From: a virus
Lineage: Duplodnaviria > Caudoviricetes
IMG/VR virus record: IMGVR_UViG_3300017909_001925
Location: 1-25,978 of that record
Reading direction: 5' to 3' (one strand)
DNA length: 25,978 nucleotides
Position numbers and translations under genes: made by a program. The notes under the pieces were generated by a model. It saw nothing but the letters and a program-made list of their open reading frames with translations. It ran no database searches and had not been told where the DNA came from. Positions 866 to 17,648 of the stretch are shown piece after piece (the stretch's first letter is position 1; every line of letters begins with the position of its first letter).

Positions 866-975
866 TGTGTATGGTAACTAAGAAAGAAGATGGTTCTTTC
901 GTACAAATATGCAACTGTAAGAATGGAAGTTCTTGTTGCAAGGAAGGTGGATTAGATGAAACTAACAGTAGTTAG
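865..975 (+). CDS. 36-aa Cys-rich micro-protein (MCMVTKKEDGSFVQICNCKNGSSCCKEGGLDETNSS)
   Basis: Hand-translated. TAATG overlap with the upstream stop; fills the gap before the lysin; 5 Cys. Confidence 0.55.
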   Translation: MCMVTKKEDGSFVQICNCKNGSSCCKEGGLDETNSS

Positions 976-1549
976 AACACAATTTGGAACAGATGCAACC
1001 AATGGGTTGCTATTTATAGATGGTATTTTTGAGTGTTATACACTTGAGGACCAATATCAAGCAGTAAAAGTTATGCACGAAACATGCATACCTGAAGGGA
1101 CTTATGATATTAAATTCAGAAAAACTGGAGGTTTTCACTCCAAGTACAGTGAGCGCTATAAAAATGCCCATTATGGGATGCTTCATGTACAGGATGTACC
1201 TAACTTTACTTATATTCTCATACACACTGGTAACACCGATGAGCATACCAGTGGTTGTTTGATTGTAGGGGAAACTCAACAAGACTTAGAAATCTCTAAG
1301 GATGGTTTTATTGGCAGCAGCACAGTGGCTTACAAGAAGATGTATGCTAAAGTTGCAGGTCAACTTCTTCAAGGTAAACCTGTAAGTATTGAATATACAA
1401 CTATTAACAACTTGTTTAAACAAGGTGATGAGGATAATAAATCAAAAGACCACACAGTTTTGGCTACCACAGTTTATGATAAATTGCAGGAAATAAATGG
1501 AAATGTTTTAACAATTAAATCAAAACTTAGTGGAAAGGTAATACAATAA
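956..1549 (+). CDS. DUF5675-like putative endolysin (L,D-peptidase-like)
   Basis: Motifs T-x-G-x-L-x-IDG-x-F-x-CYTLED, TCIPEGTY, VPNFTYILIHTGNT...HTSGCLIVG match the family as I recall it. Adjacent to a holin. Confidence 0.8.
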   Translation: MKLTVVRTQFGTDATNGLLFIDGIFECYTLEDQYQAVKVMHETCIPEGTYDIKFRKTGGFHSKYSERYKNAHYGMLHVQDVPNFTYILIHTGNTDEHTSGCLIVGETQQDLEISKDGFIGSSTVAYKKMYAKVAGQLLQGKPVSIEYTTINNLFKQGDEDNKSKDHTVLATTVYDKLQEINGNVLTIKSKLSGKVIQ

Positions 1550-1839
1550 TGTCAGATTTATTCGAAAAGAATAATAGAAGAAGAAACCAAGAGGGTAAGT
1601 TCAAGAAGGACTTATGGTGGACTCCTTGGAATGAAGCATGGAGTTACAAAATGAGTGATGACCTTAAAGATATGTTAGAGCGCACAGCTTGGACATTTAT
1701 TGAGGCGTTCATTGGCGCTTTGACAGTTGCACCTTTAGTAGGTGTAGAGGCTGAAACACTACAACTTGCAGCATTAGCAGGTGGTGGTGCAGCATTAGCT
1801 GTTATAAAGACATACGCTAAAAAACAAATTACTAAGTAA
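1549..1839 (+). CDS. Holin, r1t-like, with a charged N-terminal extension
   Basis: DMLERTAWTFIEAFIGAL...LAALAGGGAALAVIKTYA resembles r1t/actinophage holins. Two TM segments, directly after the lysin. Confidence 0.7.
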   Translation: MSDLFEKNNRRRNQEGKFKKDLWWTPWNEAWSYKMSDDLKDMLERTAWTFIEAFIGALTVAPLVGVEAETLQLAALAGGGAALAVIKTYAKKQITK

Positions 1840-1896
1840 ATACCTTAGTTGTCGTACATCTAGTGTAAAATAGGTGTTGACACATAAGGAGGTATT

Positions 1897-3078
1897 GTGC
1901 CTAAGAAGAAACCAATTCCTGCAGAAAATAGTAATAATTTTTTTAAAGCAGGTTGGAAACCTACTATGGATTTCGACCATACCACTGGTACAGGTGAGAT
2001 AACACATGTAGGAACAGACCCCAACTACGCATCTAAAACAGATGAGATATTAAAAGAGTGGGGATTTGACCCTAAATTGTATGAAATAGATGGAATCCTT
2101 AAGGTTTCTTCTTGGAACACACAATTAAAAGGTGGCATCGTTGAAACTTTCTTTGCATTTAAGGGAAGTGTACGCAGAAAATCTGCAAACAGAGATAAAT
2201 ATTATCAGTCATTGTTTAAACAAGCAGCAAAGAAGCCACCATTAAAGGACCATGGACTATTCAAGGGTGACACAGCCTTCTTCTTTTTTCTTTCAGATTG
2301 GCAACTCGGCAAGGATGATTATGGAGTTGAGAATACAATAAAAAGATTTGATGTTGCATTACAAGATGGTGTGCAACTACTTAAGAATCACAGAAAAACT
2401 GGGTTTAAAATAGATGAGATTTACTTAATAGGAATGGGTGACCTCACAGAAAACTGTACAAAATTCTTTTACGACAGCCAACCACACAATGTTTCTCTCA
2501 ACCTCTTGGAACAATATAGCCTTGCTAGAGCTATGATATTTAAAGCAGTAGAGACATTTTTACCTTATGCAGATAAAATTATTTTGTCAGGTGTGCCAGG
2601 AAACCATGGCGAAATGACTAGAAGTTCTAAAGGTCAGGTTCTTACAAGTCGCTTAGACAACTCAGATACAATGCATTTACAGATAATGGATGAAATATTC
2701 CAGGCAAATCCTGAAAGATATAAAAAAGTAAAGGTAATTATTCCTGAAGGATACCACTTAACATTAGATGTCAAGGGTCAAACTATGGCATTTACTCATG
2801 GTCACATGACAAATGGGTCAGGTAACGCAGAAAATAAAATAGAACAATGGTGGAAAGGTCAGATGTATGGATGGTTACCAGTAGGTCAGGCTTCTATACT
2901 AGTAACTGCTCACTATCACCATTTTCGTGCTAAAACTCAAGGAGACAGGCATTGGTTTCAATGCCCATCTCTTGATAAAAGTATTGATTTCACACAGAGA
3001 ACTGGGTTATGGTCGCATCCTGGTGTATTAACATTACTTGTTAATGACCGAGGACCAAGCTATCCAGTCATTGTTTAA
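1897..3078 (+). CDS. Calcineurin-like metallophosphoesterase (Mre11/SbcD-superfamily nuclease or phosphoesterase)
   Basis: Motifs SDWQ, MGDL, PGNHG, THGH, AHYHH. GTG start with AAGGAGG SD. Confidence 0.85.
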   Translation: MPKKKPIPAENSNNFFKAGWKPTMDFDHTTGTGEITHVGTDPNYASKTDEILKEWGFDPKLYEIDGILKVSSWNTQLKGGIVETFFAFKGSVRRKSANRDKYYQSLFKQAAKKPPLKDHGLFKGDTAFFFFLSDWQLGKDDYGVENTIKRFDVALQDGVQLLKNHRKTGFKIDEIYLIGMGDLTENCTKFFYDSQPHNVSLNLLEQYSLARAMIFKAVETFLPYADKIILSGVPGNHGEMTRSSKGQVLTSRLDNSDTMHLQIMDEIFQANPERYKKVKVIIPEGYHLTLDVKGQTMAFTHGHMTNGSGNAENKIEQWWKGQMYGWLPVGQASILVTAHYHHFRAKTQGDRHWFQCPSLDKSIDFTQRTGLWSHPGVLTLLVNDRGPSYPVIV

Positions 3079-3548
3079 ACAGAGGGCAAAACCTTATATA
3101 ATTTAGGCTTTCCATCAACATCCTTCTCAGGGTAGTGTCCTTCTTCTGTTCTTGGGTCTATCCATAATTCTGATATTTTCTCAGCACTAAACCACTTTGG
3201 TTCTGAATTTGGATGCTTGAAATAAAACAAACCAACTTTAACTTTGTCATATCTTCTAGCTCTGTACTGCATCTCCATCAGCTTGTGATAGTCTGATTCT
3301 TTTAATTTAAGTGTCCCTTTTACCTCAACTAAATAGATAAATCCATTCTTTACAACTGCGTAATCAGGTATGAGTAATACCTTTGTAACATACCAAAACA
3401 AATCAAGTTTGTTCTCTTTAGGGTCTGTTCCAATCTTTAACCAGTCCTTAAACTCAACAAGGTTCGCAGCTTTTAAATAGTTCTGCATAGCCTCATCAGC
3501 CATATCAGGAACTGATTGTCTATCATCATAGCTATCTGTATATTTCAA
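3075..3548 (-). CDS. PD-(D/E)XK nuclease-family protein (resolvase or endonuclease-like)
   Basis: IPDYAVVKNGFIYLVEVKG fits the PD...ExK catalytic signature. Confidence 0.7.
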   Translation of the reverse strand: MKYTDSYDDRQSVPDMADEAMQNYLKAANLVEFKDWLKIGTDPKENKLDLFWYVTKVLLIPDYAVVKNGFIYLVEVKGTLKLKESDYHKLMEMQYRARRYDKVKVGLFYFKHPNSEPKWFSAEKISELWIDPRTEEGHYPEKDVDGKPKLYKVLPSV

Positions 3549-3856
3549 AATATATCTCCTTGTTCGTATCTTTTTCTTTCTTCAGGAGTGGTAATGATTG
3601 CGTGACATCCTTTTTGGTCAACAGAGAAAGGGGTATCTCCTACTTGTTTAAACAGGAAGGCACACCTTTCATTACCATCCGAGTCCAAATAAACATCTCT
3701 TACATCTTTTTTAGTGCAAGGTTTGTTTCCTTCGACAACTTTACATTTTCTATCTAATGGTGGTTTCTTACTAAAGTCATAATCAGGATAGATTTTTTGT
3801 AATTTTTCTATCAGTTTATTGATATTGTAAGAACCACCAGCAGGTTCTAAAGCCAT
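3545..3856 (-). CDS. Hypothetical protein with 4 Cys
   Basis: 103-aa ORF overlapping both neighbours in the operon. Confidence 0.7.
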   Translation of the reverse strand: MALEPAGGSYNINKLIEKLQKIYPDYDFSKKPPLDRKCKVVEGNKPCTKKDVRDVYLDSDGNERCAFLFKQVGDTPFSVDQKGCHAIITTPEERKRYEQGDIF

Positions 3857-4713
3857 TCTTTCGGAACTAGCTTTTCAGAGTTGCTACTATTTATGTAACC
3901 TCCCCAGCCACATCCATTGTTTTGTCCAAAATTACTACAAGCAAAGTCAGGAATACCTTTAAACTTTTCATCTTGTGCTTTCTTAGCTCTATTGTCCTCA
4001 ATCCAGTCAGGTGAATTACAAGAAGGGCAGTTCTTAGTAATATCTTTTATATCACCAAATATCTCTTCGACTGCTTGTCTTGATTCCTTCATTTCTTGAG
4101 GCTCATTTTGTAACTCAAAGAACGCATCCATATAAGTATCAAAATCTTCATCAGTCCAAGTTGCTAAATCCTTGTTATCGACTGCTTTCCAAGCTGCGTT
4201 TTTATATGTCTCTCTAAGCGAAGCATCTTTTTCGTGAAACTCAGTAGCCTCTTTTAATTTTTGTTGCCACTCATGTGAGGCTTGATTTTCTTTTGCTTTA
4301 GATGGTGATTTTTTTGGAGGTGATTGAACTGGTGAATCATCAACAAAGAAGTCATCTGTTCCACTCCATAGCTCAACACCTAAACCAAATCTCATACAAG
4401 CTCTTTTGAATGCATCTGATTCAGCAAGTTTCATACACTCACCTTTGGTTGCTCTTTGTAATGCACTGTTCTCTACATCACCAGCACCTTGAAATGTTCC
4501 AAGTCCTTCCACTTGTATAGTTCCAATGCCACCAATTACTAATCCATCAATAATCGTTGGCTCAAACTTCCATGAGTATTTAACCTTACAATCTCTAAGT
4601 CTTTCAACATAGACTGCATGATTAACAAATTTCCCAAACTTACCTTTGGGTGGGTCTTGCACAACTTCTTTAGGGAATGGCGCAAGTAATTGTTCCCTTA
4701 CCTTTTCTTCCAT
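3847..4713 (-). CDS. Sak/Rad52-like single-strand annealing protein with C-terminal Zn-ribbon
   Basis: LLAPFP...FVNHAVYVERL...G-x-G...KLAESDAFKRACMRFGLGVELW is a Rad52/Sak signature. C-terminal CPSC...PDFAC...CGWG. Confidence 0.8.
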   Translation of the reverse strand: MEEKVREQLLAPFPKEVVQDPPKGKFGKFVNHAVYVERLRDCKVKYSWKFEPTIIDGLVIGGIGTIQVEGLGTFQGAGDVENSALQRATKGECMKLAESDAFKRACMRFGLGVELWSGTDDFFVDDSPVQSPPKKSPSKAKENQASHEWQQKLKEATEFHEKDASLRETYKNAAWKAVDNKDLATWTDEDFDTYMDAFFELQNEPQEMKESRQAVEEIFGDIKDITKNCPSCNSPDWIEDNRAKKAQDEKFKGIPDFACSNFGQNNGCGWGGYINSSNSEKLVPKEWL

Positions 4714-4716
4714 GTG

Positions 4717-4908
4717 TTACCTACTTTCTATTATTTTGTATACTCTTTGTCTGCTCAACTCAAGTGCATCACTAATTTCTTTGACTGAAATGCCATTGTT
4801 TAAACAAGCAAGAATAGTATTTAGTCTTACTGTTTTAAGTCTGTCTATATCACTGTTTGCTCTTGCAAGTTGCGAATTAATTAATTTGAGTTCGTTCAAA
4901 CTGCTCAT
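4717..4908 (-). CDS. Small helix-turn-helix DNA-binding protein
   Basis: GISVKEISDALELSRQRVYKII is a typical HTH, preceded by a short coiled-coil-like helix. Confidence 0.8.
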   Translation of the reverse strand: MSSLNELKLINSQLARANSDIDRLKTVRLNTILACLNNGISVKEISDALELSRQRVYKIIESR

Positions 4909-5014
4909 CTTTCTCAGCTCTCCATTCTCTATACATCTCTACAAGTCCCTCTACTAATACATACATTAGTATTCCAAACATAAACATTATGATTAGTCCC
5001 TGTACGCTAAACAT
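4877..5014 (-). CDS. 45-aa single-TM protein (MFSVQGLIIMFMFGILMYVLVEG...)
   Basis: Hand-translated. SD AAGGAGG upstream; N-terminal TM and charged tail. Confidence 0.65.
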   Translation of the reverse strand: MFSVQGLIIMFMFGILMYVLVEGLVEMYREWRAEKDEQFERTQIN

Positions 5015-5174
5015 TTTCCTCCTTTATTTCTAAAACTTTATGTCCTGATATTTGGTCAATGTAACCTTTCCAAAAGTTAATTGCCCAGTCAACATTTCTA
5101 AATGAGTATGAATCTTTTTGTGTAAATTCAACTCTGATATTTAGAATATGCTTATTGCTCTTCGGCTGTGGCAT
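5007..5174 (-). CDS. 55-aa hypothetical protein (MPQPKSNKHILNIRVEF...)
   Basis: Hand-translated. AAAGGAAG before the ATG; fills the gap and overlaps both neighbours. Confidence 0.6.
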   Translation of the reverse strand: MPQPKSNKHILNIRVEFTQKDSYSFRNVDWAINFWKGYIDQISGHKVLEIKEENV

Positions 5175-5382
5175 CTTCCTTTATTCTTTCTTCGTTAGCT
5201 TGTTGCATATTAAAGTTATAATCTACAACAAACTGTTCGATTAGACTATCTACCTTTACAATATTGTGTCTGTTAAGTTTAATACTTGTCTGTGTCACTT
5301 CTTGTCCACCACAAGCATTGGCTAAATTAATTGCCCACTTCTTCAAGTGTTTTGTTTCACTAAATATATTTGGCTTACTCAT
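5152..5382 (-). CDS. Hypothetical protein
   Basis: 76-aa ORF in a contiguous - strand operon. Confidence 0.65.
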   Translation of the reverse strand: MSKPNIFSETKHLKKWAINLANACGGQEVTQTSIKLNRHNIVKVDSLIEQFVVDYNFNMQQANEERIKEDATAEEQ

Positions 5383-5602
5383 CTGCTATCACAAAATTAA
5401 CATCAACATTGTCATCGATGATTTGTACCTTTGTATTGTATCCAGCACCACTTACTGTAAAGTGTTGCAAGATTGTAGCTTGTGATAAGTCGCTAGTCTG
5501 TTTCTTGACTGCACCATCTATATTGTTTGCCATTGTCCATAAGACACCTTTGGCTGTATTATTTTTGTAGTCGTACTTTCTACAAATGGATATTATATCC
5601 AT
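5375..5602 (-). CDS. Hypothetical protein
   Basis: 75-aa ORF with SD AAGGGAGG. Confidence 0.7.
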   Translation of the reverse strand: MDIISICRKYDYKNNTAKGVLWTMANNIDGAVKKQTSDLSQATILQHFTVSGAGYNTKVQIIDDNVDVNFVIADE

Positions 5603-5625
5603 GATTCCTCCCTTATATCTATTGG

Positions 5626-5787
5626 TTACTTGTCTGCTGTTTGTAGCTCTTCAATCTTTACGATGAAGTAGTTACTTCCAGTATCCTTAATCTCTGTTCT
5701 CTTTGCTGAGGCTTCCTCATAGGTATCAAACTCCCATGTCATAACACTCGCATCGAAAATCGAAAGACTCGTTACTAAGTATTTCAT
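5626..5787 (-). CDS. 53-aa hypothetical protein (MKYLVTSLSIFDASVMTWEFDTYEEA...), probably leaderless
   Basis: Hand-translated. ATG lies 7 nt after a TAACAT -10 hexamer. Confidence 0.6.
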   Translation of the reverse strand: MKYLVTSLSIFDASVMTWEFDTYEEASAKRTEIKDTGSNYFIVKIEELQTADK

Positions 5788-5793
5788 ACCACC

Positions 5794-5821
5794 ATGTTAA
5801 TAGCTATTTAATATTAAACAA
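5794..5821 (-). promoter_or_regulatory. Putative promoter TTGTTT-N16-TAACAT
   Basis: AT-rich intergenic gap; spacing is consistent with a leaderless start at 5787. Confidence 0.4.
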
Positions 5822-5865
5822 GTAATTACATAAGTTTTTACTGCTTGTTTAAACAACTACCTCTT

Positions 5866-5988
5866 TCATCCATATCTTTTCTTGCCACCATTTGCTACAC
5901 CATCACCAGTAGGTCGTTTCAAACCACGATACTTTCCACCTTTTTTAGATTTCATAGCTCTTCTCATAGCTCTATTCACTTTTACCAT
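5866..5988 (-). CDS. 40-aa basic micro-protein (MVKVNRAMRRAMKSKKGGKYRG...)
   Basis: Hand-translated. NRxxRR-type basic motif common in small phage proteins. Confidence 0.55.
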   Translation of the reverse strand: MVKVNRAMRRAMKSKKGGKYRGLKRPTGDGVANGGKKRYG

Positions 5989-6121
5989 CCCAATAGGATT
6001 TCTTACCTGTCATTATGTCCTCTCTGTAAAACTTCTTATATTCATATCTAAGAATAATTTTACGATTGAACAACTTGAACAAGGTAAAGTGTCTGTGTCC
6101 TGATTCTGTCGTTCTAGGCAT
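5972..6121 (-). CDS. 49-aa hypothetical protein (MPRTTESGHRHFTLFKLFNRKII...)
   Basis: Hand-translated. Overlaps both neighbours; GAGGGTG upstream. Confidence 0.55.
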   Translation of the reverse strand: MPRTTESGHRHFTLFKLFNRKIILRYEYKKFYREDIMTGKKSYWDGKSE

Positions 6122-6311
6122 AGTCATCACCCTCATCTCTCTTCTTAAATAGTCTGTCCATCAACTGTGATTTCATAAACTCTTCTGTTTCTTTTTCTTG
6201 TCGTTGTCTGAGTCGTTCTCTCTCAACTCTGTATTCACTGTATGTGATAAAGAGTAAAGAGATTGTTAAACCCATAATAAGTCCCAATACAAATAACATT
6301 ATGTCATCCAT
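6114..6311 (-). CDS. Single-TM protein with charged coiled-coil tail
   Basis: SD AGGAGG; N-terminal hydrophobic helix. Confidence 0.75.
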   Translation of the reverse strand: MDDIMLFVLGLIMGLTISLLFITYSEYRVERERLRQRQEKETEEFMKSQLMDRLFKKRDEGDDYA

Positions 6312-6322
6312 AGTTTTACCTC

Positions 6323-6538
6323 CTATACTTCGTTGTCTGTGCTACCTACTTCATTTAATTTTTTAAGCAAAAATATAAAAGCTCTACTTAAAGTTTTAAA
6401 TGAGTGTATTCTGTCATAAGCTATGCTCATGCCATCTTCTTCCCATTCAAGTAATTTTTCTTGTGCCTCTTCAATAGTTTTATAACGATTGAAACTAACA
6501 CTATTACCCTCATAAGATTCAAGTATATGTATCATCAT
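6323..6538 (-). CDS. Hypothetical protein (start revised to ATG 6538)
   Basis: AGAAAGGAAC precedes ATG 6538. The longer track start lies inside a TGTTTAAACA site. Confidence 0.65.
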   Translation of the reverse strand: MMIHILESYEGNSVSFNRYKTIEEAQEKLLEWEEDGMSIAYDRIHSFKTLSRAFIFLLKKLNEVGSTDNEV

Positions 6539-6565
6539 GTTCCTTTCTATCTGTTTAAACAAGCA

Positions 6566-6797
6566 CCAAGATATGAAGTAGTCAACTTAAGTTAAGTAGC
6601 TAATCGTAATCAGTTTCCTGATTGGATAACATTGTTATATTGAGTCGAAGTTTGAGGGATGTATCAACATGGTATTGTTGTAAGTTGTTTCTAGCTAGTC
6701 ATCTCTTACTCCTCACAAGTGAGAAAGCATGTGCAAACTCCTCATATCGAATATAACTTTAGTCATCTAACCTGTCATTGACTACCTCATACCTTGG
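6566..6797 (-). ncRNA. Putative structured ncRNA domain A (~230 nt)
   Basis: 20-bp closing stem 6566-6585/6778-6797 whose two mismatches are G-U on the - strand. AAUCAG-GAAA-CUGAUU tetraloop hairpin at 6608-6623. Further internal stems; no ORF in the track. Confidence 0.65.
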
Positions 6798-7043
6798 TAG
6801 CTCTCGGTTAAGTAGTACTATTGTGTTTCAAGTTCCCTTTGCAAGGGCTAATACCTAGAATTATTTTAATATACTAAGAACTAGCGTAACCATTCTAGGA
6901 TAGTCGGTGAGTACACACTCATGCTGTTCTTAGCCTCTCATCAACATCACTCAGTTACTTCAAGTTGTAACCTCGCTAAGAAAACCTCATAATGCTTGAA
7001 CATTAATCGTTTTCCCATAGTTATCTACTTAACCGACAACTAC
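6798..7043 (-). ncRNA. Putative structured ncRNA domain B (~245 nt)
   Basis: Perfect 12-bp IR 6804-6815/7025-7036 with extensions. GCAA-loop hairpin 6835-6847; 8-bp stems 6854-6861/6892-6899 and 6927-6934/6975-6982. Confidence 0.65.
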
Positions 7044-7167
7044 CTGTTTAAACAAGGGATGGTGCGAGGCATCACACCATCCAATGTTTTCCTGCTGGGA
7101 TATTATGGTCTTGCCATAATTACCACCTCACTTTCTACTTAAGTCATACAAGTAGTAGTGAGTTAAA

Positions 7168-7437
7168 TTATGTTAGTGCGTATTTGCTTGTTCTACTGAA
7201 CTTTGCACCTTCACACTCTTGGGATAGTACAAAAGAATCCCATTCCTTTGTAGCTTTATCCCCATCAACACTTCCGATTTCTTTTGCCTTAGCCATAGCT
7301 TTGGTCAAGCCATCGAATGCGCTTGGATGAATAAGAACTTTTCTGTCCTCATCACCATCAAGGTTTACCTCAAGCCATACACTGTATTCATTTACTGTGT
7401 AGGTTGCACCTTTTTTAATTTCATCTAGTTGTGGCAT
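7168..7437 (-). CDS. Hypothetical early protein
   Basis: 89 aa; SD AAGGAGGCA. Confidence 0.75.
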   Translation of the reverse strand: MPQLDEIKKGATYTVNEYSVWLEVNLDGDEDRKVLIHPSAFDGLTKAMAKAKEIGSVDGDKATKEWDSFVLSQECEGAKFSRTSKYALT

Positions 7438-7517
7438 ACTGCCTCCTTACTATTCTAGTAATTTACCTTGTTGTAATTACCATAATGCTACCTGTTTAAA
7501 CAAGTAGCACTAGCTAA

Positions 7518-7766
7518 CTACAATTTGTCTATTTTAATATCAGATGGGGTTGCACCATCACTATCAGTTACCAATACAATATCTTTGCCATCATAATCAA
7601 TTATGTTTATGTGACTCTCATGCTTTCTTATGGTTTCTAATACATCTGATAAAGCATCATCTGTAGCGTTTGTATCATGCGCAACAAGTAAAGTAATTTT
7701 TTCGACTTTACAATATCTTGCATAATCTCTATGATTTAACACTAGCTCTCTAGTATCTTTGCTCAT
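7518..7766 (-). CDS. Hypothetical early protein
   Basis: 82 aa; SD GAGGAGGCA. Confidence 0.75.
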   Translation of the reverse strand: MSKDTRELVLNHRDYARYCKVEKITLLVAHDTNATDDALSDVLETIRKHESHINIIDYDGKDIVLVTDSDGATPSDIKIDKL

Positions 7767-7885
7767 TTCTTTGCCTCCTCAATTAGTTTTTTCCAATAGT
7801 CATCTGATTCAGTGTCAATGAACCAGTCACCATTTTGAACGAACTCTTCGTATTCTTCTTCGTTTTCGAATACTCCATAAGCCAT
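7763..7885 (-). CDS. 40-aa acidic micro-protein (MAYGVFENEEEYEEFVQNGDWFIDTESDDYWKKLIEEAKK)
   Basis: Hand-translated. SD AAGGAGGCA at 7888-7896; ATGA overlap with the next gene. Confidence 0.7.
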   Translation of the reverse strand: MAYGVFENEEEYEEFVQNGDWFIDTESDDYWKKLIEEAKK

Positions 7886-7908
7886 TCTGCCTCCTTCTGT
7901 TTGCTATA

Positions 7909-8258
7909 TAGATAGCTTGTAACACACTGGCATAACTTTAATCTTGACTGCAAAGCAGACATAACCAATGTGCTACAAGCTACCTACTGTAAGTGAACTA
8001 CACTGGAACTAATCTGTTTATAGTAGTTTTTTCTATCTAGCTAACATTTCTGCACTAGACTTCCAACCTTTGTAACTTACATAGATAGCTTGAAAGATAC
8101 TAGGAACGAGGTCTGCAATTAGTTGTTTCGTTCTTATCCAGTTATGAACTGGCTACCTTGCTAATATCCTTCAAGCTACCATCACCGATACAACAAGGGC
8201 AATATATTATACTCAGTGATAGATAGCTTAGAAGTGGCTGTTTAAACAACCACTTCTA
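7909..8258 (-). ncRNA. Five back-to-back stem-closed RNA domains
   Basis: IR-bounded units at 7909-7986, 7988-8081, 8086-8178, 8181-8220 and 8229-8258. Stem mismatches are mostly G-U on the - strand; GCA-GAAA-UGU loop in the second unit. Confidence 0.65.
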
Positions 8259-8263
8259 TAATT

Positions 8264-8692
8264 TTAGAATGGAACATAGTCCTCATCCTCACTGAAAACA
8301 TTATCTGCCTCATCTTTTACTTCTTTGGGTGGGTTGAACATGTCATCCCATTCATCCTTAGTAAGTAAAGTCATAGCCTCTGATATTGTTATGAAGTGTT
8401 TGTCCTTTGGGTTTCCACAATCTGCATCATCGAAACTTGAACCAAAGTTTTGCTTTGCTGTAACACTGGCGTTTTTCATGCGAATATCTCTGAAGAACAA
8501 TGTCTTGTCCTCAATGTCATCAACATGCAACACCTCAATATTGTCACTGTATTTAGTTTCGATATTGATTCCGATATGCGCTTGAAGTTTCTTGAACTTA
8601 ACAAGAACATCATCTTGTGATTCAGCATCCACAATATGCACCTCTGTAAAGTGAGAGAATAAGCACTTTGCTAATACTATGTATTTTTCCAT
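8264..8692 (-). CDS. Hypothetical early protein with acidic C-terminal tail (...EDEDYVPF)
   Basis: 142 aa; SD AAGGAGGCA. Confidence 0.8.
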   Translation of the reverse strand: MEKYIVLAKCLFSHFTEVHIVDAESQDDVLVKFKKLQAHIGINIETKYSDNIEVLHVDDIEDKTLFFRDIRMKNASVTAKQNFGSSFDDADCGNPKDKHFITISEAMTLLTKDEWDDMFNPPKEVKDEADNVFSEDEDYVPF

Positions 8693-8763
8693 TATGCCTC
8701 CTTAAATAGTGATACTATAAGTATCTTTGACTACTCATTGTTTAAACAAGTAGTCTAAGATAA

Positions 8764-9435
8764 TTACTGATAATCTGCTCGTAACCTCTCAGGAAGCTCA
8801 ACAACTGTCGAACTACCACAAGCTGGGCATCTGAAGTTATCACCAACTTTTTTGTATTGGGCGTATGATACTCTAACTATCAATCCCCATCCTTGCGCAA
8901 CACTTCTGTCGCTAGAACCTATACAAGCCTCTGCACCAGTACATCGCACTGCAACTGAGGTTGAACCAGCACCTTCTGATTCCTTCATCTTGGCGTGAGG
9001 TAAATAACCTAACTCTTTGATAAAGTCTTGAATCATAAGGGTGAATCGTGGTCCAGCAACTGTCGCTGTTGGTTTGCCTTCAGCACCTAAGTAATTTTTG
9101 ATTACTCTTGAGAATTTTGGTCCATGCTTTGCATCAGATGGTAAGACTGCGTGTGTAACTTCGTGGGCTACAACTTGGGCTGTCTCGATACATTCTGCTA
9201 GGTTACTTGCACCTAATGTAGGTTTGATAAAGATTTCTCTGAATCCACCTTGTGAAGAATTCTCGTAGTGACATACTCCAATAGCATTACCATTACCTTT
9301 TGGCATAAATCCAATCGATAATCTGATTTGCTCTCTCGGAACAACTGGCACGAACTCAAGCGAAATTTTATCGTAAATAAAATCTGCTATTTTGTTTAAC
9401 CAATCTTCTCGGTTACCTTCGAATATTTTATCCAT
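8764..9435 (-). CDS. SprT-like zinc metallopeptidase with C-terminal Zn-binding motif
   Basis: VAHEVTH (HExxH) followed by HGPKF, preceded by AIGVC; C-terminal CxxxxxC...CPAC. SD AGGAGGCA. Confidence 0.75.
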   Translation of the reverse strand: MDKIFEGNREDWLNKIADFIYDKISLEFVPVVPREQIRLSIGFMPKGNGNAIGVCHYENSSQGGFREIFIKPTLGASNLAECIETAQVVAHEVTHAVLPSDAKHGPKFSRVIKNYLGAEGKPTATVAGPRFTLMIQDFIKELGYLPHAKMKESEGAGSTSVAVRCTGAEACIGSSDRSVAQGWGLIVRVSYAQYKKVGDNFRCPACGSSTVVELPERLRADYQ

Positions 9436-9465
9436 TTTTTGCCTCCTAATTATTGTGTTGTGATA

Positions 9466-9494
9466 ACCATACTATAGTTAACAACTGTTGTCAA
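9466..9494 (-). promoter_or_regulatory. Sigma70/SigA-type early promoter TTGACA-N17-TATGGT
   Basis: Consensus -35 at 9494-9489 and -10 at 9471-9466. Shares TAGTTGACAA and TAGTATRGTTA context with the 10726-10753 promoter. Confidence 0.75.
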
Positions 9495-9546
9495 CTATTT
9501 ATAATTACCTATCTACTCACTGTTTAAACAATGAGTAGTTAGCTAA

Positions 9547-9834
9547 TTAGTTATGATTTATGTATGAGGGTGAAACTCTATATTTTCTGCCTTCGAATTC
9601 ACCAGTCAATACAACTCCAATAGTTTTTGTATTTACTTTTTCTACGATTGCTGGATATAGTTTTCCACTTTTGAAAGTAACAACAACTTGGTCACCTTTT
9701 TTATAATTGGTGATTTCTGCTTTTGTATTTTCATCCCATTTCTTTTTCATAGCTTTCCATACTTCTCTTAAATCATCGTTATTATCAATTAATTCAATCG
9801 ATGCTTTCGCTATGATTACATTATCATTTTCCAT
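9547..9834 (-). CDS. Small protein with SH3/KOW-like beta-barrel
   Basis: KGDQVVVTF...YPAIVEKVNTKTIGV...KYRVSPSYI pattern; SD AGGAGGCA. Confidence 0.7.
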   Translation of the reverse strand: MENDNVIIAKASIELIDNNDDLREVWKAMKKKWDENTKAEITNYKKGDQVVVTFKSGKLYPAIVEKVNTKTIGVVLTGEFEGRKYRVSPSYINHN

Positions 9835-9906
9835 TTTTGCCTCCTATAATCTTGGTAATTATTTAATTACCTTTGAGGATGCTTGTTTAAACATCCTCTA
9901 AGCTAA

Positions 9907-10194
9907 TTAAATGTTTTTGCAATAATCCCAGTCTGATTCAATCTTTTGTTGTTTTCTTACTGAAGTTATTACTCTGTTTAGAGTGTGAAAGTTAGAATCT
10001 TCCAATGCTAATTGACAAATATCTAAAATATCTGCGCCATCCCATTCGAAATTATTAGAAATAAAATCGGCTAGTAACCTTTTCTTTTTCTCTTTAAATT
10101 CTTTTTCCTCTTTCTCTAAAACTAATTCTTTCTCAGTCTTAGGAATTTGAAATTCCTCATTAAGTTGATTTACAACTTCGCTAAGTTTTGCCAT
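9907..10194 (-). CDS. First early gene, hypothetical (start revised to ATG 10194, MAKLSEVV...)
   Basis: SD GAGGAGGCA at 10201-10209 supports the internal Met. Confidence 0.75.
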   Translation of the reverse strand: MAKLSEVVNQLNEEFQIPKTEKELVLEKEEKEFKEKKKRLLADFISNNFEWDGADILDICQLALEDSNFHTLNRVITSVRKQQKIESDWDYCKNI

Positions 10195-10220
10195 TTTTTT
10201 TGCCTCCTCTTTTTTATAAA

Positions 10221-10316
10221 TAGCTTGATGCATACAATGGGGCTAATGTTATAGGTTTACCACACCTAAACTTGATTGGTAGCTAATTCCAACCAGCGCT
10301 TATATACATCAAGCTA
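10221..10316 (-). ncRNA. Stem-closed multibranch RNA domain
   Basis: 14-bp closing stem 10221-10234/10303-10316 (one G-U on the - strand) enclosing two hairpins. Same GGUAGCUUG/CAAGCUA ends as the 7909 and 8086 units. Confidence 0.6.
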
Positions 10317-10324
10317 CCTACTAA

Positions 10325-10720
10325 AAGGGGGCTAAATGAATTATGCGCACCTCTCTCAATGTGACTCTTGCGTAAACTTGGCTCAATATCGTGGAACATT
10401 TTAGATGTTAGGTTGATACTATCGCTGTAACTTTTTACCTATTTTCTTGAGTTTCGTTAGCTTGAATTTTTCGCTGGTGAGGTTGTTTTATGTGTTACCA
10501 CCAATCTCATTTCTGAGAGAGTGTAAGCCCTTATGTTTTGGGGGCGTTTCTTTGTCCACTCTTGAAAATCATTTTGGTTTTGCCATTTCGGTCTAATTTC
10601 CCCTTGTGATTTCGTACTTGACTCGCTCACTTTCTTGAGGCTATTTTTTGAGAGTCTCAAGACCTCTCTATTGTGTTTTGAATCTCTTGAGAATCTTTGT
10701 CTTTCTCAGTCTTGATTCAG
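10325..10720 (-). ncRNA. Long structured 5' leader or ncRNA of the early transcript
   Basis: About 400 nt after the promoter without an SD-supported ORF. UCUCA-GAAA-UGAGA hairpin at 10505-10518; seven UCAAG pentamers. Confidence 0.5.
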
Positions 10721-10725
10721 TATTA

Positions 10726-10753
10726 ACTATACTACGATTATTTTATTTGTCAA
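10726..10753 (-). promoter_or_regulatory. Major early promoter TTGACA-N16-TATAGT
   Basis: Consensus -35 at 10753-10748, -10 at 10731-10726, AT-rich upstream region. Confidence 0.7.
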
Positions 10754-11420
10754 CTACTATTGAAAATAATTTAAAAAAAATATTCAATGTTTATGGGGGT
10801 TTTTCAGGGGGTCAAAAAAAATATTTATTTACTAGAAAAATCTTGTCAATTTTGGGGGGTGAAGATGGTTGGAATAATTTTAGCTGGGGGTTAGTCAACT
10901 TAACCTTTCTTTGTTTCTGTTTAATTTACTAGTATATGTTTTCTAGAAGTTGTTATTTTATTACCAAAGTTTACCAATATTAGGTTATTTCTATGACATA
11001 CAAGATGTTGTGTATAGGTGTAGATAAACAATATATAGTAGGGTAGGGGTTAAATGTGACACGCCACTTATGTATATGTGTGTCCTCTAAATATATGCTG
11101 TTAACTCTAAGTTAGCCCACCTGTTTATATCTTATTTATTGTTACTGGATTAAGTATTTTCACAAGTAAAGGACTATGTGAATTATATTTCACAATGTCT
11201 TAAGTTTGTGATATTAGTACAACTTACCCTGTGTCATCCCTCCCAACCGATAACAAATCTGTTTATGACTTATTTAAATATTATGAAGTAATAGCCTTTA
11301 ACGCTAGTTACCATGGTCAGGCAAGTCCACTTATTGAAGTTTTTATCTGATAGATTCTTTCTAAGTGCCTGGAGTCTATCGTGTTTGTTTTTCTACTATA
11401 CCATAAAAATATTTTATGTG

Positions 11421-11470
11421 GGGATTTTCAAGTGACTTATTAAGGAGGCAAAATAAGTATTAAAAATCCC
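11421..11470. other. Orphan hairpin with AAGGAGGCAA/TTGCCTCCTT loop
   Basis: Stems 11421-11428/11463-11470 and 11435-11441/11452-11458; loop 11442-11451. Confidence 0.6.
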
Positions 11471-11485
11471 TATATAAGTCTAGTA

Positions 11486-11497
11486 TGTGCTATAGTG
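11486..11497 (+). promoter_or_regulatory. Extended -10 promoter TGTGCTATAGTG
   Basis: TGnTATAGT; 11/12 identical to the element at 11835-11846. Confidence 0.5.
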
Positions 11498-11809
11498 GAT
11501 TAGATGGTTTTCATAACCCTTTATTCATTAAAGACATGATTGCCCTTTCTATTGTGTATGCGTGAGGGTGTGCCAGGCAACTGATGCACCCAATCGTATT
11601 ATAAAAATAACCTCAGACAAAAAAATTTTTTTTTACGCCACAATATTTATTTATATATATACTGGTATTACTTAGGGTGGTCCTAAGTATCGTATAGGGG
11701 TATACGATTAGAAAAAAGAAAGAATGCTTATCATATAGGACATTTGTGATTCTGTAAGATGTAAGTGTATTTCGTTTTTTTTCATAAACAGTTTGGACAC
11801 TGTATACAA

Positions 11810-11837
11810 ACAGAACTCCACTTCGGTGGAGTTTTGT
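11810..11837 (+). terminator. Intrinsic-terminator-like hairpin with C(UUCG)G tetraloop
   Basis: ACAGAACTCCAC-TTCG-GTGGAGTTTTGT; possibly bidirectional. Confidence 0.6.
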
Positions 11838-11846
11838 GTTATAGTG
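11835..11846 (+). promoter_or_regulatory. Extended -10 promoter TGTGTTATAGTG for the late/packaging operon
   Basis: TGnTATAGT; ATG 11853 is 8 nt downstream, consistent with a leaderless start. Confidence 0.55.
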
Positions 11847-11852
11847 ATGATT

Positions 11853-11918
11853 ATGAAAATGTATAAAAACAAAAAGAAAAAATCTAAAGGCAAAGGCAAA
11901 AAGAAACTAGGTTACTAA
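11853..11918 (+). CDS. 21-aa Lys-rich micro-protein (MKMYKNKKKKSKGKGKKKLGY)
   Basis: Hand-translated. TAATG coupling to the next ORF. Confidence 0.6.
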   Translation: MKMYKNKKKKSKGKGKKKLGY

Positions 11919-12043
11919 TGCCTTATAAAGATTATTCAGCAAAACAAAAGAAACTAGCTGCTGTAGCACCACCTTTTAAAAAGATTACTGCTGCAGATTT
12001 TAAAAAGCTAAGAGATGGCAAACGCAGACCAAAAAAAACATAA
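11918..12043 (+). CDS. 41-aa basic micro-protein (MPYKDYSAKQKKLAAVAPPFKKITAADFKKLR...)
   Basis: Hand-translated. TAATG overlaps at both ends. Confidence 0.7.
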   Translation: MPYKDYSAKQKKLAAVAPPFKKITAADFKKLRDGKRRPKKT

Positions 12044-12123
12044 TGGATGCTTTTATAGTATTTCTTATGTTTGTTCTTGTAAATGCGTGGGCATGGATTT
12101 TGATTAAGAAAGATAAAATATAA
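12043..12123 (+). CDS. 26-aa single-TM micro-protein (MDAFIVFLMFVLVNAWAWILIKKDKI)
   Basis: Hand-translated. TAATG overlaps at both ends. Confidence 0.65.
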   Translation: MDAFIVFLMFVLVNAWAWILIKKDKI

Positions 12124-12383
12124 TGGCAACATATCAAGGTAAAACAGTCACGCTTAATAAGCCTTCTAGGATAACTAAAGGTGAACCTGGTTATGGTAGA
12201 AAAAAATCTAAAGTCTATGTAAAAAATAAAAGTGGCAAAGTCATCAAAGTAATGTTTGGAGACCCTAACATGGAAATTAGAAAGGATAATCCTGAAGCAA
12301 GAAAATCTTTTAGAGCTAGACATAAATGCGATACAGCAACAGACAAGACTACACCTAGGTATTGGTCTTGCAAAGCGTGGTAA
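12123..12383 (+). CDS. Basic phage protein (DUF6321-like)
   Basis: FGDPNM...RKSFRARHKC...YWSCKAW motif recalled from marine phage proteins. Confidence 0.75.
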   Translation: MATYQGKTVTLNKPSRITKGEPGYGRKKSKVYVKNKSGKVIKVMFGDPNMEIRKDNPEARKSFRARHKCDTATDKTTPRYWSCKAW

Positions 12384-12386
12384 ACT

Positions 12387-12560
12387 ATGAAAATAAAAGG
12401 CGTAGATGTTTCTAAATTAACAAAGAGACAACAAGATGCGATGAAGAAACACTCAAAGCATCACACAAAAAAACACATGCAGTACATGTACAACTCTATG
12501 GTAAGAGGTAACTCTTTCAGTAAAGCACATGTCAATGCACAGAAGAATGTAGGTAGATAA
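12387..12560 (+). CDS. 57-aa basic His-rich protein (MKIKGVDVSKLTKRQQDAMKKHSKHHTKKHM...)
   Basis: Hand-translated. TAATG overlap with the next gene. Confidence 0.7.
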   Translation: MKIKGVDVSKLTKRQQDAMKKHSKHHTKKHMQYMYNSMVRGNSFSKAHVNAQKNVGR

Positions 12561-12778
12561 TGGCTATACCAGCATCGGCACAAAAATCATTAAGAGAAAA
12601 AGCTAAAAAATCAAAATACACTTATGGACAACTTGCACAAGTGTACAGAAGAGGACAAGGTGCTTATGTATCTTCAGGTTCTCGTAATGTATCTATGGCA
12701 GCTTGGGCTATGGGTAGAGTAAACAGTTTTATAAGAGGTGGACACTCACAAGATAACGACATAAAGAAGAAAAAATAA
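12560..12778 (+). CDS. Basic phage protein (DUF5824-like)
   Basis: L-x-x-VYRRG-x-GAY...W-A-x-GRVNSFI motif, family assignment from memory. Confidence 0.7.
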   Translation: MAIPASAQKSLREKAKKSKYTYGQLAQVYRRGQGAYVSSGSRNVSMAAWAMGRVNSFIRGGHSQDNDIKKKK

Positions 12779-12897
12779 TGGCACAGGTTAGTTGGATGTG
12801 GGGTGGCAAAAGACATTATGGAACTCTTATTAGAGAAACTAAAACACATAAGTTTGCTAGGACCAAAAATGGGAAAATTAAAAAAATCAAAAAATGA
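12778..12897 (+). CDS. 39-aa basic beta-rich micro-protein (MAQVSWMWGGKRHYGTLIRETKTHKFARTKNGKIKKIKK)
   Basis: Hand-translated. TAATG coupling. Confidence 0.65.
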   Translation: MAQVSWMWGGKRHYGTLIRETKTHKFARTKNGKIKKIKK

Positions 12898-12949
12898 TAA
12901 ATCTAAAAAAGAGTATGCAGGTAATCCTAATTGGGCAGGAGATGATTGA
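12869..12949 (+). CDS. 26-aa micro-protein (MGKLKKSKNDKSKKEYAGNPNWAGDD)
   Basis: Hand-translated. Ends in a TGATG overlap with the next ORF; start uncertain. Confidence 0.45.
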   Translation: MGKLKKSKNDKSKKEYAGNPNWAGDD

Positions 12950-13143
12950 TGAGTAGAAGAACACAACCTTATAGATATGGTGTACCTGCAAAGTATTTAT
13001 CAGGTATGTCTGATGCAGAAGCAAAGAAGAGAGCAGCCGAAATAAAAAGAACACAGAAAGCGTATAGAGCAGGTAAAAAAGTAAATATTGCTGCTGTATC
13101 TAAATCAAGAGCAAAGAGTGGAAGAAGAAACAAGATTACTTGA
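12949..13143 (+). CDS. 64-aa basic protein (start revised to ATG 12949)
   Basis: MSRRTQPYRYGVPAKYLSG...; TGATG coupling. Confidence 0.7.
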   Translation: MSRRTQPYRYGVPAKYLSGMSDAEAKKRAAEIKRTQKAYRAGKKVNIAAVSKSRAKSGRRNKIT

Positions 13144-13241
13144 AAGTTGGATGCCCTCGTTGTGGGGAACATTTAGTTTACAATAATGACAAGCAGAAAA
13201 TGGCTTGTTTAAACAAGGAGTGTGAACACTACAGAAAATGA
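13140..13241 (+). CDS. 33-aa Zn-finger micro-protein (MKVGCPRCGEHLVYNNDKQKMACLNKECEHYRK)
   Basis: Hand-translated. TTGA overlap upstream and ATGA overlap with terminase; CxxC...CxxxxC. Confidence 0.65.
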   Translation: MKVGCPRCGEHLVYNNDKQKMACLNKECEHYRK

Positions 13242-17196: not shown

Positions 17197-17648
17197 GAAA
17201 ACCAGCAACTTTAAAAATGGCACAAGAAGCTACAGATGCAAAAGACCCAGCTTTTCAAGATTTATATATACCTAGGAAAGAAGGAGATTCTACAGGTTCA
17301 TCAAAATTAGTAAATACTTTAGCTGGAGGACTGGAAGGTGAATCTACAGAGATTGTAGAAGCAGAAACAGGACCATTAGGAGTTAGCGCTGTAAATCCTA
17401 TAGCTTTAGGTTCAGCAACAAGAAATCCTGCAGAACCAAATACTGCTGGTATATCACAAGGTGCTGGTCCTGGACCAACAAAACAAAGACCTGCTGGAGA
17501 TTTAAATGCATATTTAGCAGGACTTATTGAAAGATTTGGAAGAGACCCATTGTTACTAGATTTGTTTGAGCAAAAAAATGCTACACCTATGGTAGAAAAC
17601 CCAAGACAAAATACTAGATTGACAGATTCGGAAAGCAGATATGCGTAA
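17190..17648 (+). CDS. Hypothetical virion-region protein
   Basis: 152 aa; contains T-x-x-P-x-EP-x-TAG-x-x-x-GAGPGP, a low-complexity motif typical of post-portal genes. Confidence 0.7.
   Translation: MVRKPATLKMAQEATDAKDPAFQDLYIPRKEGDSTGSSKLVNTLAGGLEGESTEIVEAETGPLGVSAVNPIALGSATRNPAEPNTAGISQGAGPGPTKQRPAGDLNAYLAGLIERFGRDPLLLDLFEQKNATPMVENPRQNTRLTDSESRYA

Follow-up and report, generated by a model that had tools for sequence, protein, structure and literature searches.

What does a phage gain from writing one short palindrome again and again along a single arm of its genome, inside genes as well as between them? The question is raised by a 25,978-nt stretch of a tailed-phage genome (IMG/VR record IMGVR_UViG_3300017909_001925; this whole stretch is called the window), in which the 10-bp palindrome TGTTTAAACA recurs in 14 exact copies. 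The data indicate that the array is exact, evenly spaced and maintained by selection on the DNA, and that its sites and a gene for an SprT-like zinc metalloprotease (8764..9435, minus strand, 223 aa) are present or absent together. Both observations can be accommodated by a model whereby phages of at least two bacterial phyla possess a two-part self-marking system, consisting of a tiled 8-bp word and a Spartan-like protease that would dock on it and thereby set up proteolytic checkpoints destroying host proteins on phage DNA. We put the probability of this model as a whole at roughly 0.4.

An exact, evenly spaced array maintained on the DNA

A sequence-only reading of the window had reported the 14 copies between 1413 and 13215, gaps of 363-1152 bp among the first 13 of them and a constrained flank, YTGTTTAAACAR (Y..R), at 13 of 14 sites, and all of these values were recovered on recomputation, against a mean of 0.14 copies and a maximum of 1 in 100 dinucleotide shuffles. 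Permitting a single mismatch adds just 3 sites in the window, where 3.9 are expected in total. The array proposed by that reading is thus real, but its invariant unit is shorter than the 10-bp palindrome: it is the 8-mer GTTTAAAC, and the outer T/A, present at 14/14 window sites, is merely preferred and is dropped by some lineages, which carry the 8-mer with free flanks once per 350-450 bp. Single-mismatch variants of GTTTAAAC fall below expectation in 6/6 genomes, leaving no shoulder of near-matches. Once look-alike contexts are removed (584 sites reduced to 135), the flanks prefer CTnnYT-core-ARnnAG in intergenic and in-gene sites alike; a slight 3' A bias by strand could be explained by purine-rich coding strands, and the gaps between sites show no fixed helical phase.

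The copies in genes bear on the level at which selection acts. As previously claimed, the sites at 1413, 2213 and 3645 encode LFKQ and those at 4797 and 13206 encode CLN, and protein sequence is not their cause: the seven genes of 956-5014 hold 4 copies, whereas codon resampling predicts 0.53 and reaches 4 in none of 1000 draws. A further comparison comes from relatives, which were found by means of the exonuclease/metallophosphoesterase gene (phrog_284; 1897..3078, plus strand). At its LFK[QHR]A residues, site-forming codons occur in 59/59 array-rich loci versus 0/38 array-poor loci with the same residues (array state was scored on the remaining arm, and 12 rows lacking those residues were excluded), so that selection acts on the DNA word. 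The synonymous-site and shuffled-background checks suggested by the sequence-only reading thereby uphold its proposal of a region-wide, selected array of sites for a DNA-binding protein. In 14 array-plus/array-minus pairs compared base by base, 46 of 47 aligned sites are broken, although the rows are interdependent and a number of blocks are badly aligned. The 11 array-less loci examined for a replacement motif yielded only promoter and ribosome-binding words. As a separate observation, TTAGCTAA is the top palindrome in several array-less relatives as well.

All 63 loci with an exonuclease of at least 76% identity contain at least one copy of the word. Wider scans added loci with 65-70% exonuclease identity, and across these the array is nearly all-or-none, with four short loci intermediate. 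On a 127-row exonuclease tree (built with a quick method; duplicates and loci with less than 3.5 kb of arm excluded), array state changes 16 times, and at least 10 of these changes are forced by strongly supported branches.

The array is also unevenly distributed over the genome. The plus strand of the window carries virion and lysis genes and the minus strand a small-gene arm that starts at about 10.2 kb, the two converging at 3075; judging from gene content and promoter patterns, the small-gene arm is probably early. Five relatives that are 95-100% complete (38.7-41.2 kb) share this gene plan and contain 24, 19, 17, 15 and 15 copies of GTTTAAAC, compared with 1.6-2.1 expected. The earlier picture of a tiling of one arm holds insofar as the early arm is densest; the word is not confined there, since the virion genes of these relatives carry sparse copies, one per 3-13 kb. 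Beyond 13215 the window has zero copies, and because only 0.16 are expected in its late genes, their absence does not amount to depletion. In three early arms, the coefficient of variation of the spacing is 0.33-0.38 versus 0.89-0.93 for random placement (P <=1e-4).

Sites occupy the tips of hairpins that follow stop codons, stop codons themselves, positions next to ribosome-binding sites or ahead of promoter patterns, and gene interiors. In the window, 5/14 copies crown long post-stop hairpins that fold better on the transcribed strand (z -5.7 to -9.4), all on the minus strand. Sites 9 (7493-7502), 10 (8239-8248), 11 (8739-8748) and 12 (9521-9530) form the tips of 7471..7524 (z -9.4), 8229..8258 (z -6.9), 8720..8771 (z -5.7) and 9502..9549 (z -6.7), respectively; the third of these hairpins comes directly behind the SprT-like gene and the fourth has 24 pairs. 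Site 13 (9884-9893) lies in 9861..9912 (z -8.9). Such placement might suggest that the word acts in RNA, as a hairpin loop for processing or termination, and among stop-adjacent sites of relatives, 19/26 indeed fold well and 23/26 fold better on the sense strand. However, only 5/51 in-gene and 7/40 other intergenic sites fold, the arms differ at every hairpin, and the non-palindromic variant GTTTACAC is found on both strands. RNA hairpin signals such as an RNase III site, a terminator or a PeSL-like cassette would show a hairpin at every copy, but only 5 of 14 window copies have one, and an RNA role is very improbable. Because most in-gene sites do not fold, the hairpin tip is better understood as free sequence that hosts the site. 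The five hairpins of 7471-9912 are themselves of note: they are long and poor in U-tracts, and several have common outer arms (TAGCTA..GGTAATTA-like) and lead into AT-rich spacers and AGGAGGCAAAA-type ribosome-binding sites, an arrangement that resembles modular gene cassettes.

The gene that accompanies the array

Which protein, then, reads the word? When the arm proteins of 60 long loci were clustered, the SprT-like family ranked first, being present in 31/37 array-bearing and 0/23 array-less loci; three of the six misses were recovered by profile search, and the other three contigs stop before the arm ends. Among the 34 loci that span the whole arm, the gene occurs in 17/17 array-bearing and 0/17 array-less loci, a split shown by only this one of 23 candidate families. 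Two SprT clades with a mutual identity of only 25-31% accompany the same word. Further loci with an SprT homolog, many of them close kin, carry GTTTA[AT]AC arrays in 27 of 39 cases.

This gene was absent from the sequence-only reading, which had instead favored the helix-turn-helix (HTH) protein encoded at 4717..4908 (minus strand; with a coiled coil) as the reader. The HTH family is present in 17/17 array-bearing loci and usually holds a site in its own gene, as it does in the window (site 5, 4797..4806, CLN). Yet it is found in 14/17 array-less loci too, its recognition helix SRQRVYKI is identical in several array-less relatives, and among array-bearing relatives this helix varies at the usual base-reading positions, leaving the HTH protein a negligible prospect as reader. 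The PD-(D/E)XK-like gene, for whose product that reading had suggested a cleavage assay, was likewise rejected as reader, having no tblastn match in 5/5 array-bearing near-complete relatives.

The SprT-like protein (phrog_6361) retains an HExxH motif (H91 E92 H95), a third histidine (H104) and four C-terminal cysteines, all invariant in 21/21 sequences. Its PF10263 score of 23.5 bits lies below the cut-off of 25.6, and 24-35% of the members of its Atlas clusters bear an SprT-like label. The predicted structure (pLDDT 80) strongly matches the model of an SprT-named Bordetella phage protein (E 1.4e-9); among solved structures its best match is human SPRTN (E 0.038, weak), and a sequence search of solved structures returned nothing under E 0.6. 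The C-terminal 78 residues (model pLDDT 79.5) form a strand, a Cys pair, a short helix, a strand, a helix and a second Cys pair; a fold search with this domain gave no significant match, and its top row, a GCM domain on DNA (E 1.6), is a lead only. In common with SPRTN/Spartan, the protein carries a zincin domain with HExxH and, behind it, a small zinc-binding domain. SPRTN itself is reported to be activated by DNA structure rather than by a sequence word. To our knowledge, SprT-like proteins of prokaryotes and phages have no established function.

Cultured phages extend the association. Twenty with a homolog were hand-picked from 129-164 tblastn matches, and in 15 of them a Q[TSG]TR strand precedes the first Cys pair; all 15 carry 4-42 GTTTANAC sites (Yang 20, Percival 16, JackieB 42, R26L 21, Pan1 16, Liebe 17, Zeta1847 23, Soondubu 23, phage 4A 14, Venkman 36, Alexa 13, Arya 9, Mica 7, HeidiAbel 6 and Persinger 4). 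Nearly all of these are GTTTAAAC or GTTTACAC, and reversed-pattern controls number 0-5. The other five (Quenya, Franklin22, Armstrong, Epa5 and CN1) have another tail and 0-2 sites. This tail rule was derived on the first ten cultured phages and held on the second ten. Immanuel3, which is not among the SprT matches listed, has 0 sites. Of 8 cultured phages tested for spacing, 7 have sites set more regularly than chance would place them (P <0.05). In Venkman (MT375522.1), a cultured marine phage whose isolation paper does not mention SprT in its main text, 32 of 34 copies of GTTTAAAC fall within the first 19 kb, a density gradient as in the window.

Could a protein of the host read the word instead? 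A GntR/HutC-type regulator, a methyltransferase or a Chi-like self mark would do so, with the SprT gene traveling along as a helper or by shared host range. The core does fit GT-N-TA-N-AC, the GntR/HutC operator consensus, as the sequence-only reading had pointed out, and an exact 8-mer without a shoulder resembles restriction-modification specificity. The fit goes no further than the core: the N positions are not free but fixed within a genome, there is no excess of near-match sites, none of the 33 window proteins matches GntR, and the word is shared irrespective of host phylum. Specifically, it is found in phages of Arthrobacter, Microbacterium, Streptomyces, Dinoroseobacter, Methylophilales, Burkholderia and enterobacteria, i.e., of actinobacterial, alpha-, beta- and gammaproteobacterial hosts. 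With fixed N positions and host groups this diverse, a GntR/HutC regulator of the host is an improbable reader. Phages of a single host species, Microbacterium foliorum, moreover differ with tail type (Percival 16, Quenya 0 and Armstrong 0 sites), which points to a phage-coded reader. Neither does the word behave as a restriction site: GTTTAAAC, the PmeI recognition site, is enriched about 10-fold rather than avoided, general profile scans of the window proteins gave no methyltransferase match, and array state is independent of GATC/ACGT avoidance (a link seen in a first set of loci was broken in a larger one). Taken together, these points leave a host reader a distinctly poor candidate.

The palindrome is selected for, not against, in phages that otherwise wholly avoid GATC, ACGT and other palindromes. 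Across 1-25978, GATC, GGCC, ACGT, CGCG, AAGCTT, CAATTG and CATATG have 0 copies and CCGG occurs once; relatives avoid differing sets of these palindromes (GATC, GGCC, ACGT and others), a possible host-range signature.

Several loci with SprT homologs carry deviating words. L317 has three GTTTGAAC about 650 bp apart after the SprT gene start, and L312 (72% GC, divergent tail) has seven GTTTAGAC, each a possible specificity variant. With near-identical SprT tails, L273, L274 and L280 have mostly GTTTATAC and L278 and L279 mostly GTTTAAAC, or the other way round, which may reflect tolerance or drift at one position. In L286 and L290, three sites follow one another every 16 bp, about 1.37-1.40 kb ahead of the SprT gene. 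Array-less homologs can also lie amid other repeats: Epa5 (NC_052964.1) contains 53 copies of CCCTGGGC versus 5.3 expected, and L307 and L318 contain 7 and 11 copies of CAAGCCATGA.

A proposed tethered protease or a possible repressor

The SprT-like protein is probably the reader of the word. Its small C-terminal zinc-ribbon domain would recognize GTTTAAAC, probably as a dimer, and a site at or near its own promoter would limit expression of the gene. In the window, a sigma-70-type promoter pattern precedes the SprT-like gene (9466..9494, minus strand; TTGACA, 17, TATGGT; a consensus match only) and lies 27 bp from the core of site 12. In most cultured carriers, a site lies no more than 100 bp from the SprT gene start; in HeidiAbel, Persinger and Mica it follows a -10-like hexamer ahead of the gene by 6-8 bases, and in phage Yang it lies between the ribosome-binding site and the start codon. 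Placed in free sequence, such as hairpin tips, stop codons, spacers and synonymous codons, the sites would hold a tethered protease every ~0.4-1.2 kb along the early arm. The combination of binding the site, limiting its own gene and acting as a DNA-tethered protease is somewhat favored over its absence. In the weakest step, the bound protease would then cut, in cis, host proteins that load on, slide along or are stuck on phage DNA; silencers, translocating defense motors and crosslinked proteins are candidate targets, and the effect would be densest on the early arm. Clearing host proteins as the purpose of the system is a tentative proposal, held at a little under even odds. It is favored because the catalytic residues are kept, because the positions of the sites serve even spacing and not control points, because the word does not diversify, and because phages without integrase hold the densest arrays. 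The word is constant between phage groups, unlike immunity operators, which are reported to diversify (PMC9283540).

A different function for the same reader has to be weighed at this point. As a repressor, the SprT-like protein might, in the manner of stoperators, keep transcription from starting where sites lie at promoters and from continuing where they are dispersed, and thereby hold a lysogenic or carrier state or time the early genes, with the protease domain serving self-cleavage or induction. Sites over likely transcription starts ahead of the SprT gene, together with the Yang site, fit such a role. Actinobacteriophages of clusters AZ and EH and phages of the Zeta1847 kind are turbid or temperate with no repressor identified, which keeps a repressor acting like a stoperator in place as the chief competing account; in the lytic phages of cluster EB, the divergent tail goes together with 0-1 sites. 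In Liebe, a frameshift in the SprT gene goes with clear plaques (bioRxiv 2025.05.26.655371), a finding that favors the repressor, albeit one qualified by three further differences between Liebe and Maureen. Against this stand the HeidiAbel phage, which has a separate cI-like gene and clear plaques (PMC11990801), the use of one word over many phage groups with no immunity-type divergence, and promoter positions in the window, where no site overlaps a promoter pattern and two lie 25-27 bp upstream of the -35 element. Tyrosine and serine recombinase domains (PF00589, PF00239) are found in 0/5 near-complete marine relatives, another point against the repressor; some cultured carriers are temperate. 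On balance, a repressor role is unlikely, yet clearly ahead of a host reader.

Comparison with known systems sharpens this distinction. Stoperators of cluster A mycobacteriophages, read by the L5-type repressor (PMC9283540), likewise exceed 12 sites and are scattered genome-wide over promoters and gene junctions. They are, however, asymmetric 13-mers oriented with transcription, whereas the word is an 8-bp palindrome or near-palindrome in either orientation, with many copies in genes; and their reader is a monomeric repressor with HTH and Stoperator domains, found in temperate phages, whereas the array tracks a metalloprotease and not the HTH protein. The 17-bp inverted repeats of cluster O mycobacteriophages (PMC4351075) are likewise invariant palindromes that are denser at one end of genomes without integrase; they number more than 30 per genome, about one third in genes, and their function is described there as not established. 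They differ in sequence and in length (7-3-7), have no reader identified there and are limited to a single cluster. Identification of the word as a stoperator, a GntR/HutC operator, a restriction site or an RNA hairpin signal fails in each case on a defining feature. On the protein side, cluster AZ gp46 is a homolog and is predicted to bind DNA, and the main text of that paper names no site, with 0 hits for "palindrom" and "operator" (bioRxiv 2025.05.26.655371). ArdC (PMC7213743) also joins a DNA-binding domain to a Spartan-like metalloprotease on a mobile element; it differs in binding single-stranded DNA without sequence preference, in its reversed domain order and in having no site array.

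Several findings weigh against the model of a DNA-tethered, self-marking protease. The whole case is one of co-occurrence, and kinship leaves 4 independent pairs, all concordant, with a sign test p of 0.125. Few or no exact sites are seen in 12 of the 39 further SprT-homolog loci, mostly high-GC with 0-7 related words; L310 has a homolog and 0 sites, and L317 has 0 exact sites and, past the gene start, its 3 GTTTGAAC. The five tail-divergent cultured phages represent just two groups. The window clade itself has GSTS for KQTT of the KQTTR motif, with the second-strand Arg kept, so the tail rule is not literal. Neither solved-structure fold match, for the whole protein or for the C-terminal domain, is significant, and the even spacing is partly that of gene boundaries. 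HeidiAbel, despite its copy of the gene and its 6 sites, is reported to be highly susceptible to restriction systems (PMC11990801), which argues against a general anti-restriction role; the clear plaques that accompany the Liebe frameshift count here as well, and the protease activity of ArdC is dispensable (PMC7213743).

In the literature covered, which did not include subscription journals, no account of the word or of a connection between it and SprT came to light. For the SprT-like family, an 8-bp target and a domain that reads it can now be predicted, and cultured phages are at hand for tests, namely HeidiAbel (E. coli), Liebe/Maureen (Arthrobacter) and Venkman (OM43). If true, the tethered-protease model would make this the first SprT protease to act in cis and sequence-specifically, and would define a type of counter-defense written into synonymous codons; should the protein prove to be only a repressor, the finding would shrink to a stoperator-type system whose reader has a new fold.

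Remaining sites and neighboring genes

The other sites of the window illustrate the variety of their placement. Site 1 (1413..1422) lies within the DUF5675 gene (956-1549), site 2 (2213..2222) within the exonuclease gene and site 4 (3645..3654) within gene 3545-3856 (103 aa), all three as LFKQ; site 3 (3072..3081) overlaps the stop codons where the plus- and minus-strand gene blocks meet. Site 7 (6552..6561) is immediately 5' of the ribosome-binding site of gene 6323-6535, and site 8 (7045..7054) adjoins a terminator-like hairpin at 7057-7082. The core of site 6 (5846..5855) is 25 bp upstream of a -35-like hexamer (5821-5816; -10-like 5799-5794) of gene 5626-5787, a promoter pattern that is retained in relatives without a copy of site 6. 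A fixed distance to promoters was considered and rejected, given that the 8 of 117 oriented sites that lie 24-26 bp upstream of a TTG..TAnnnT pattern belong mostly to one homologous promoter that also occurs without the site. Site 14 (13206..13215) is 23 bp ahead of the large terminase gene, and a copy just upstream of terminase is also seen in 4/5 near-complete relatives; read by eye, it falls in a Cys-rich 33-codon ORF (13140-13241, plus strand), shorter than the cut-off used for listing ORFs, between small late genes and terminase.

Recognized products of the window comprise the large terminase, the exonuclease, a holin, a Rad52-like annealase, the small HTH protein and the SprT-like protein, and a major head protein was identified in one relative. 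Terminases of Streptomyces phages, e.g., Immanuel3, share 24-26% identity with that of the window. A GTDB scan with the SprT alignment returned 2 weak partial matches and pointed to no host; GC content, ribosome-binding sites and the terminase similarity lead us to guess at an actinobacterial host such as Actinomarina. By T7-like logic, the dense arm might enter the cell first, which is likewise a guess. In the ORF lists of the five near-complete relatives (G001-G005, 39-41 kb), and among those of their proteins that were scanned, nothing stood out as a DNA polymerase, helicase or RNA polymerase. A 2,102-aa protein (17641-23949) follows the gene in the portal position; it has no Pfam or PHROG match and is probably an internal virion protein. 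Finally, a site precedes the scaffold and major capsid genes at an equivalent position in 5/5 near-complete relatives (G001 5968, G002 31430, G003 22679, G004 22457 and G005 17263); in the two cases inspected it is 3 bases before the TTGCAT of a TG-extended -10 promoter pattern.

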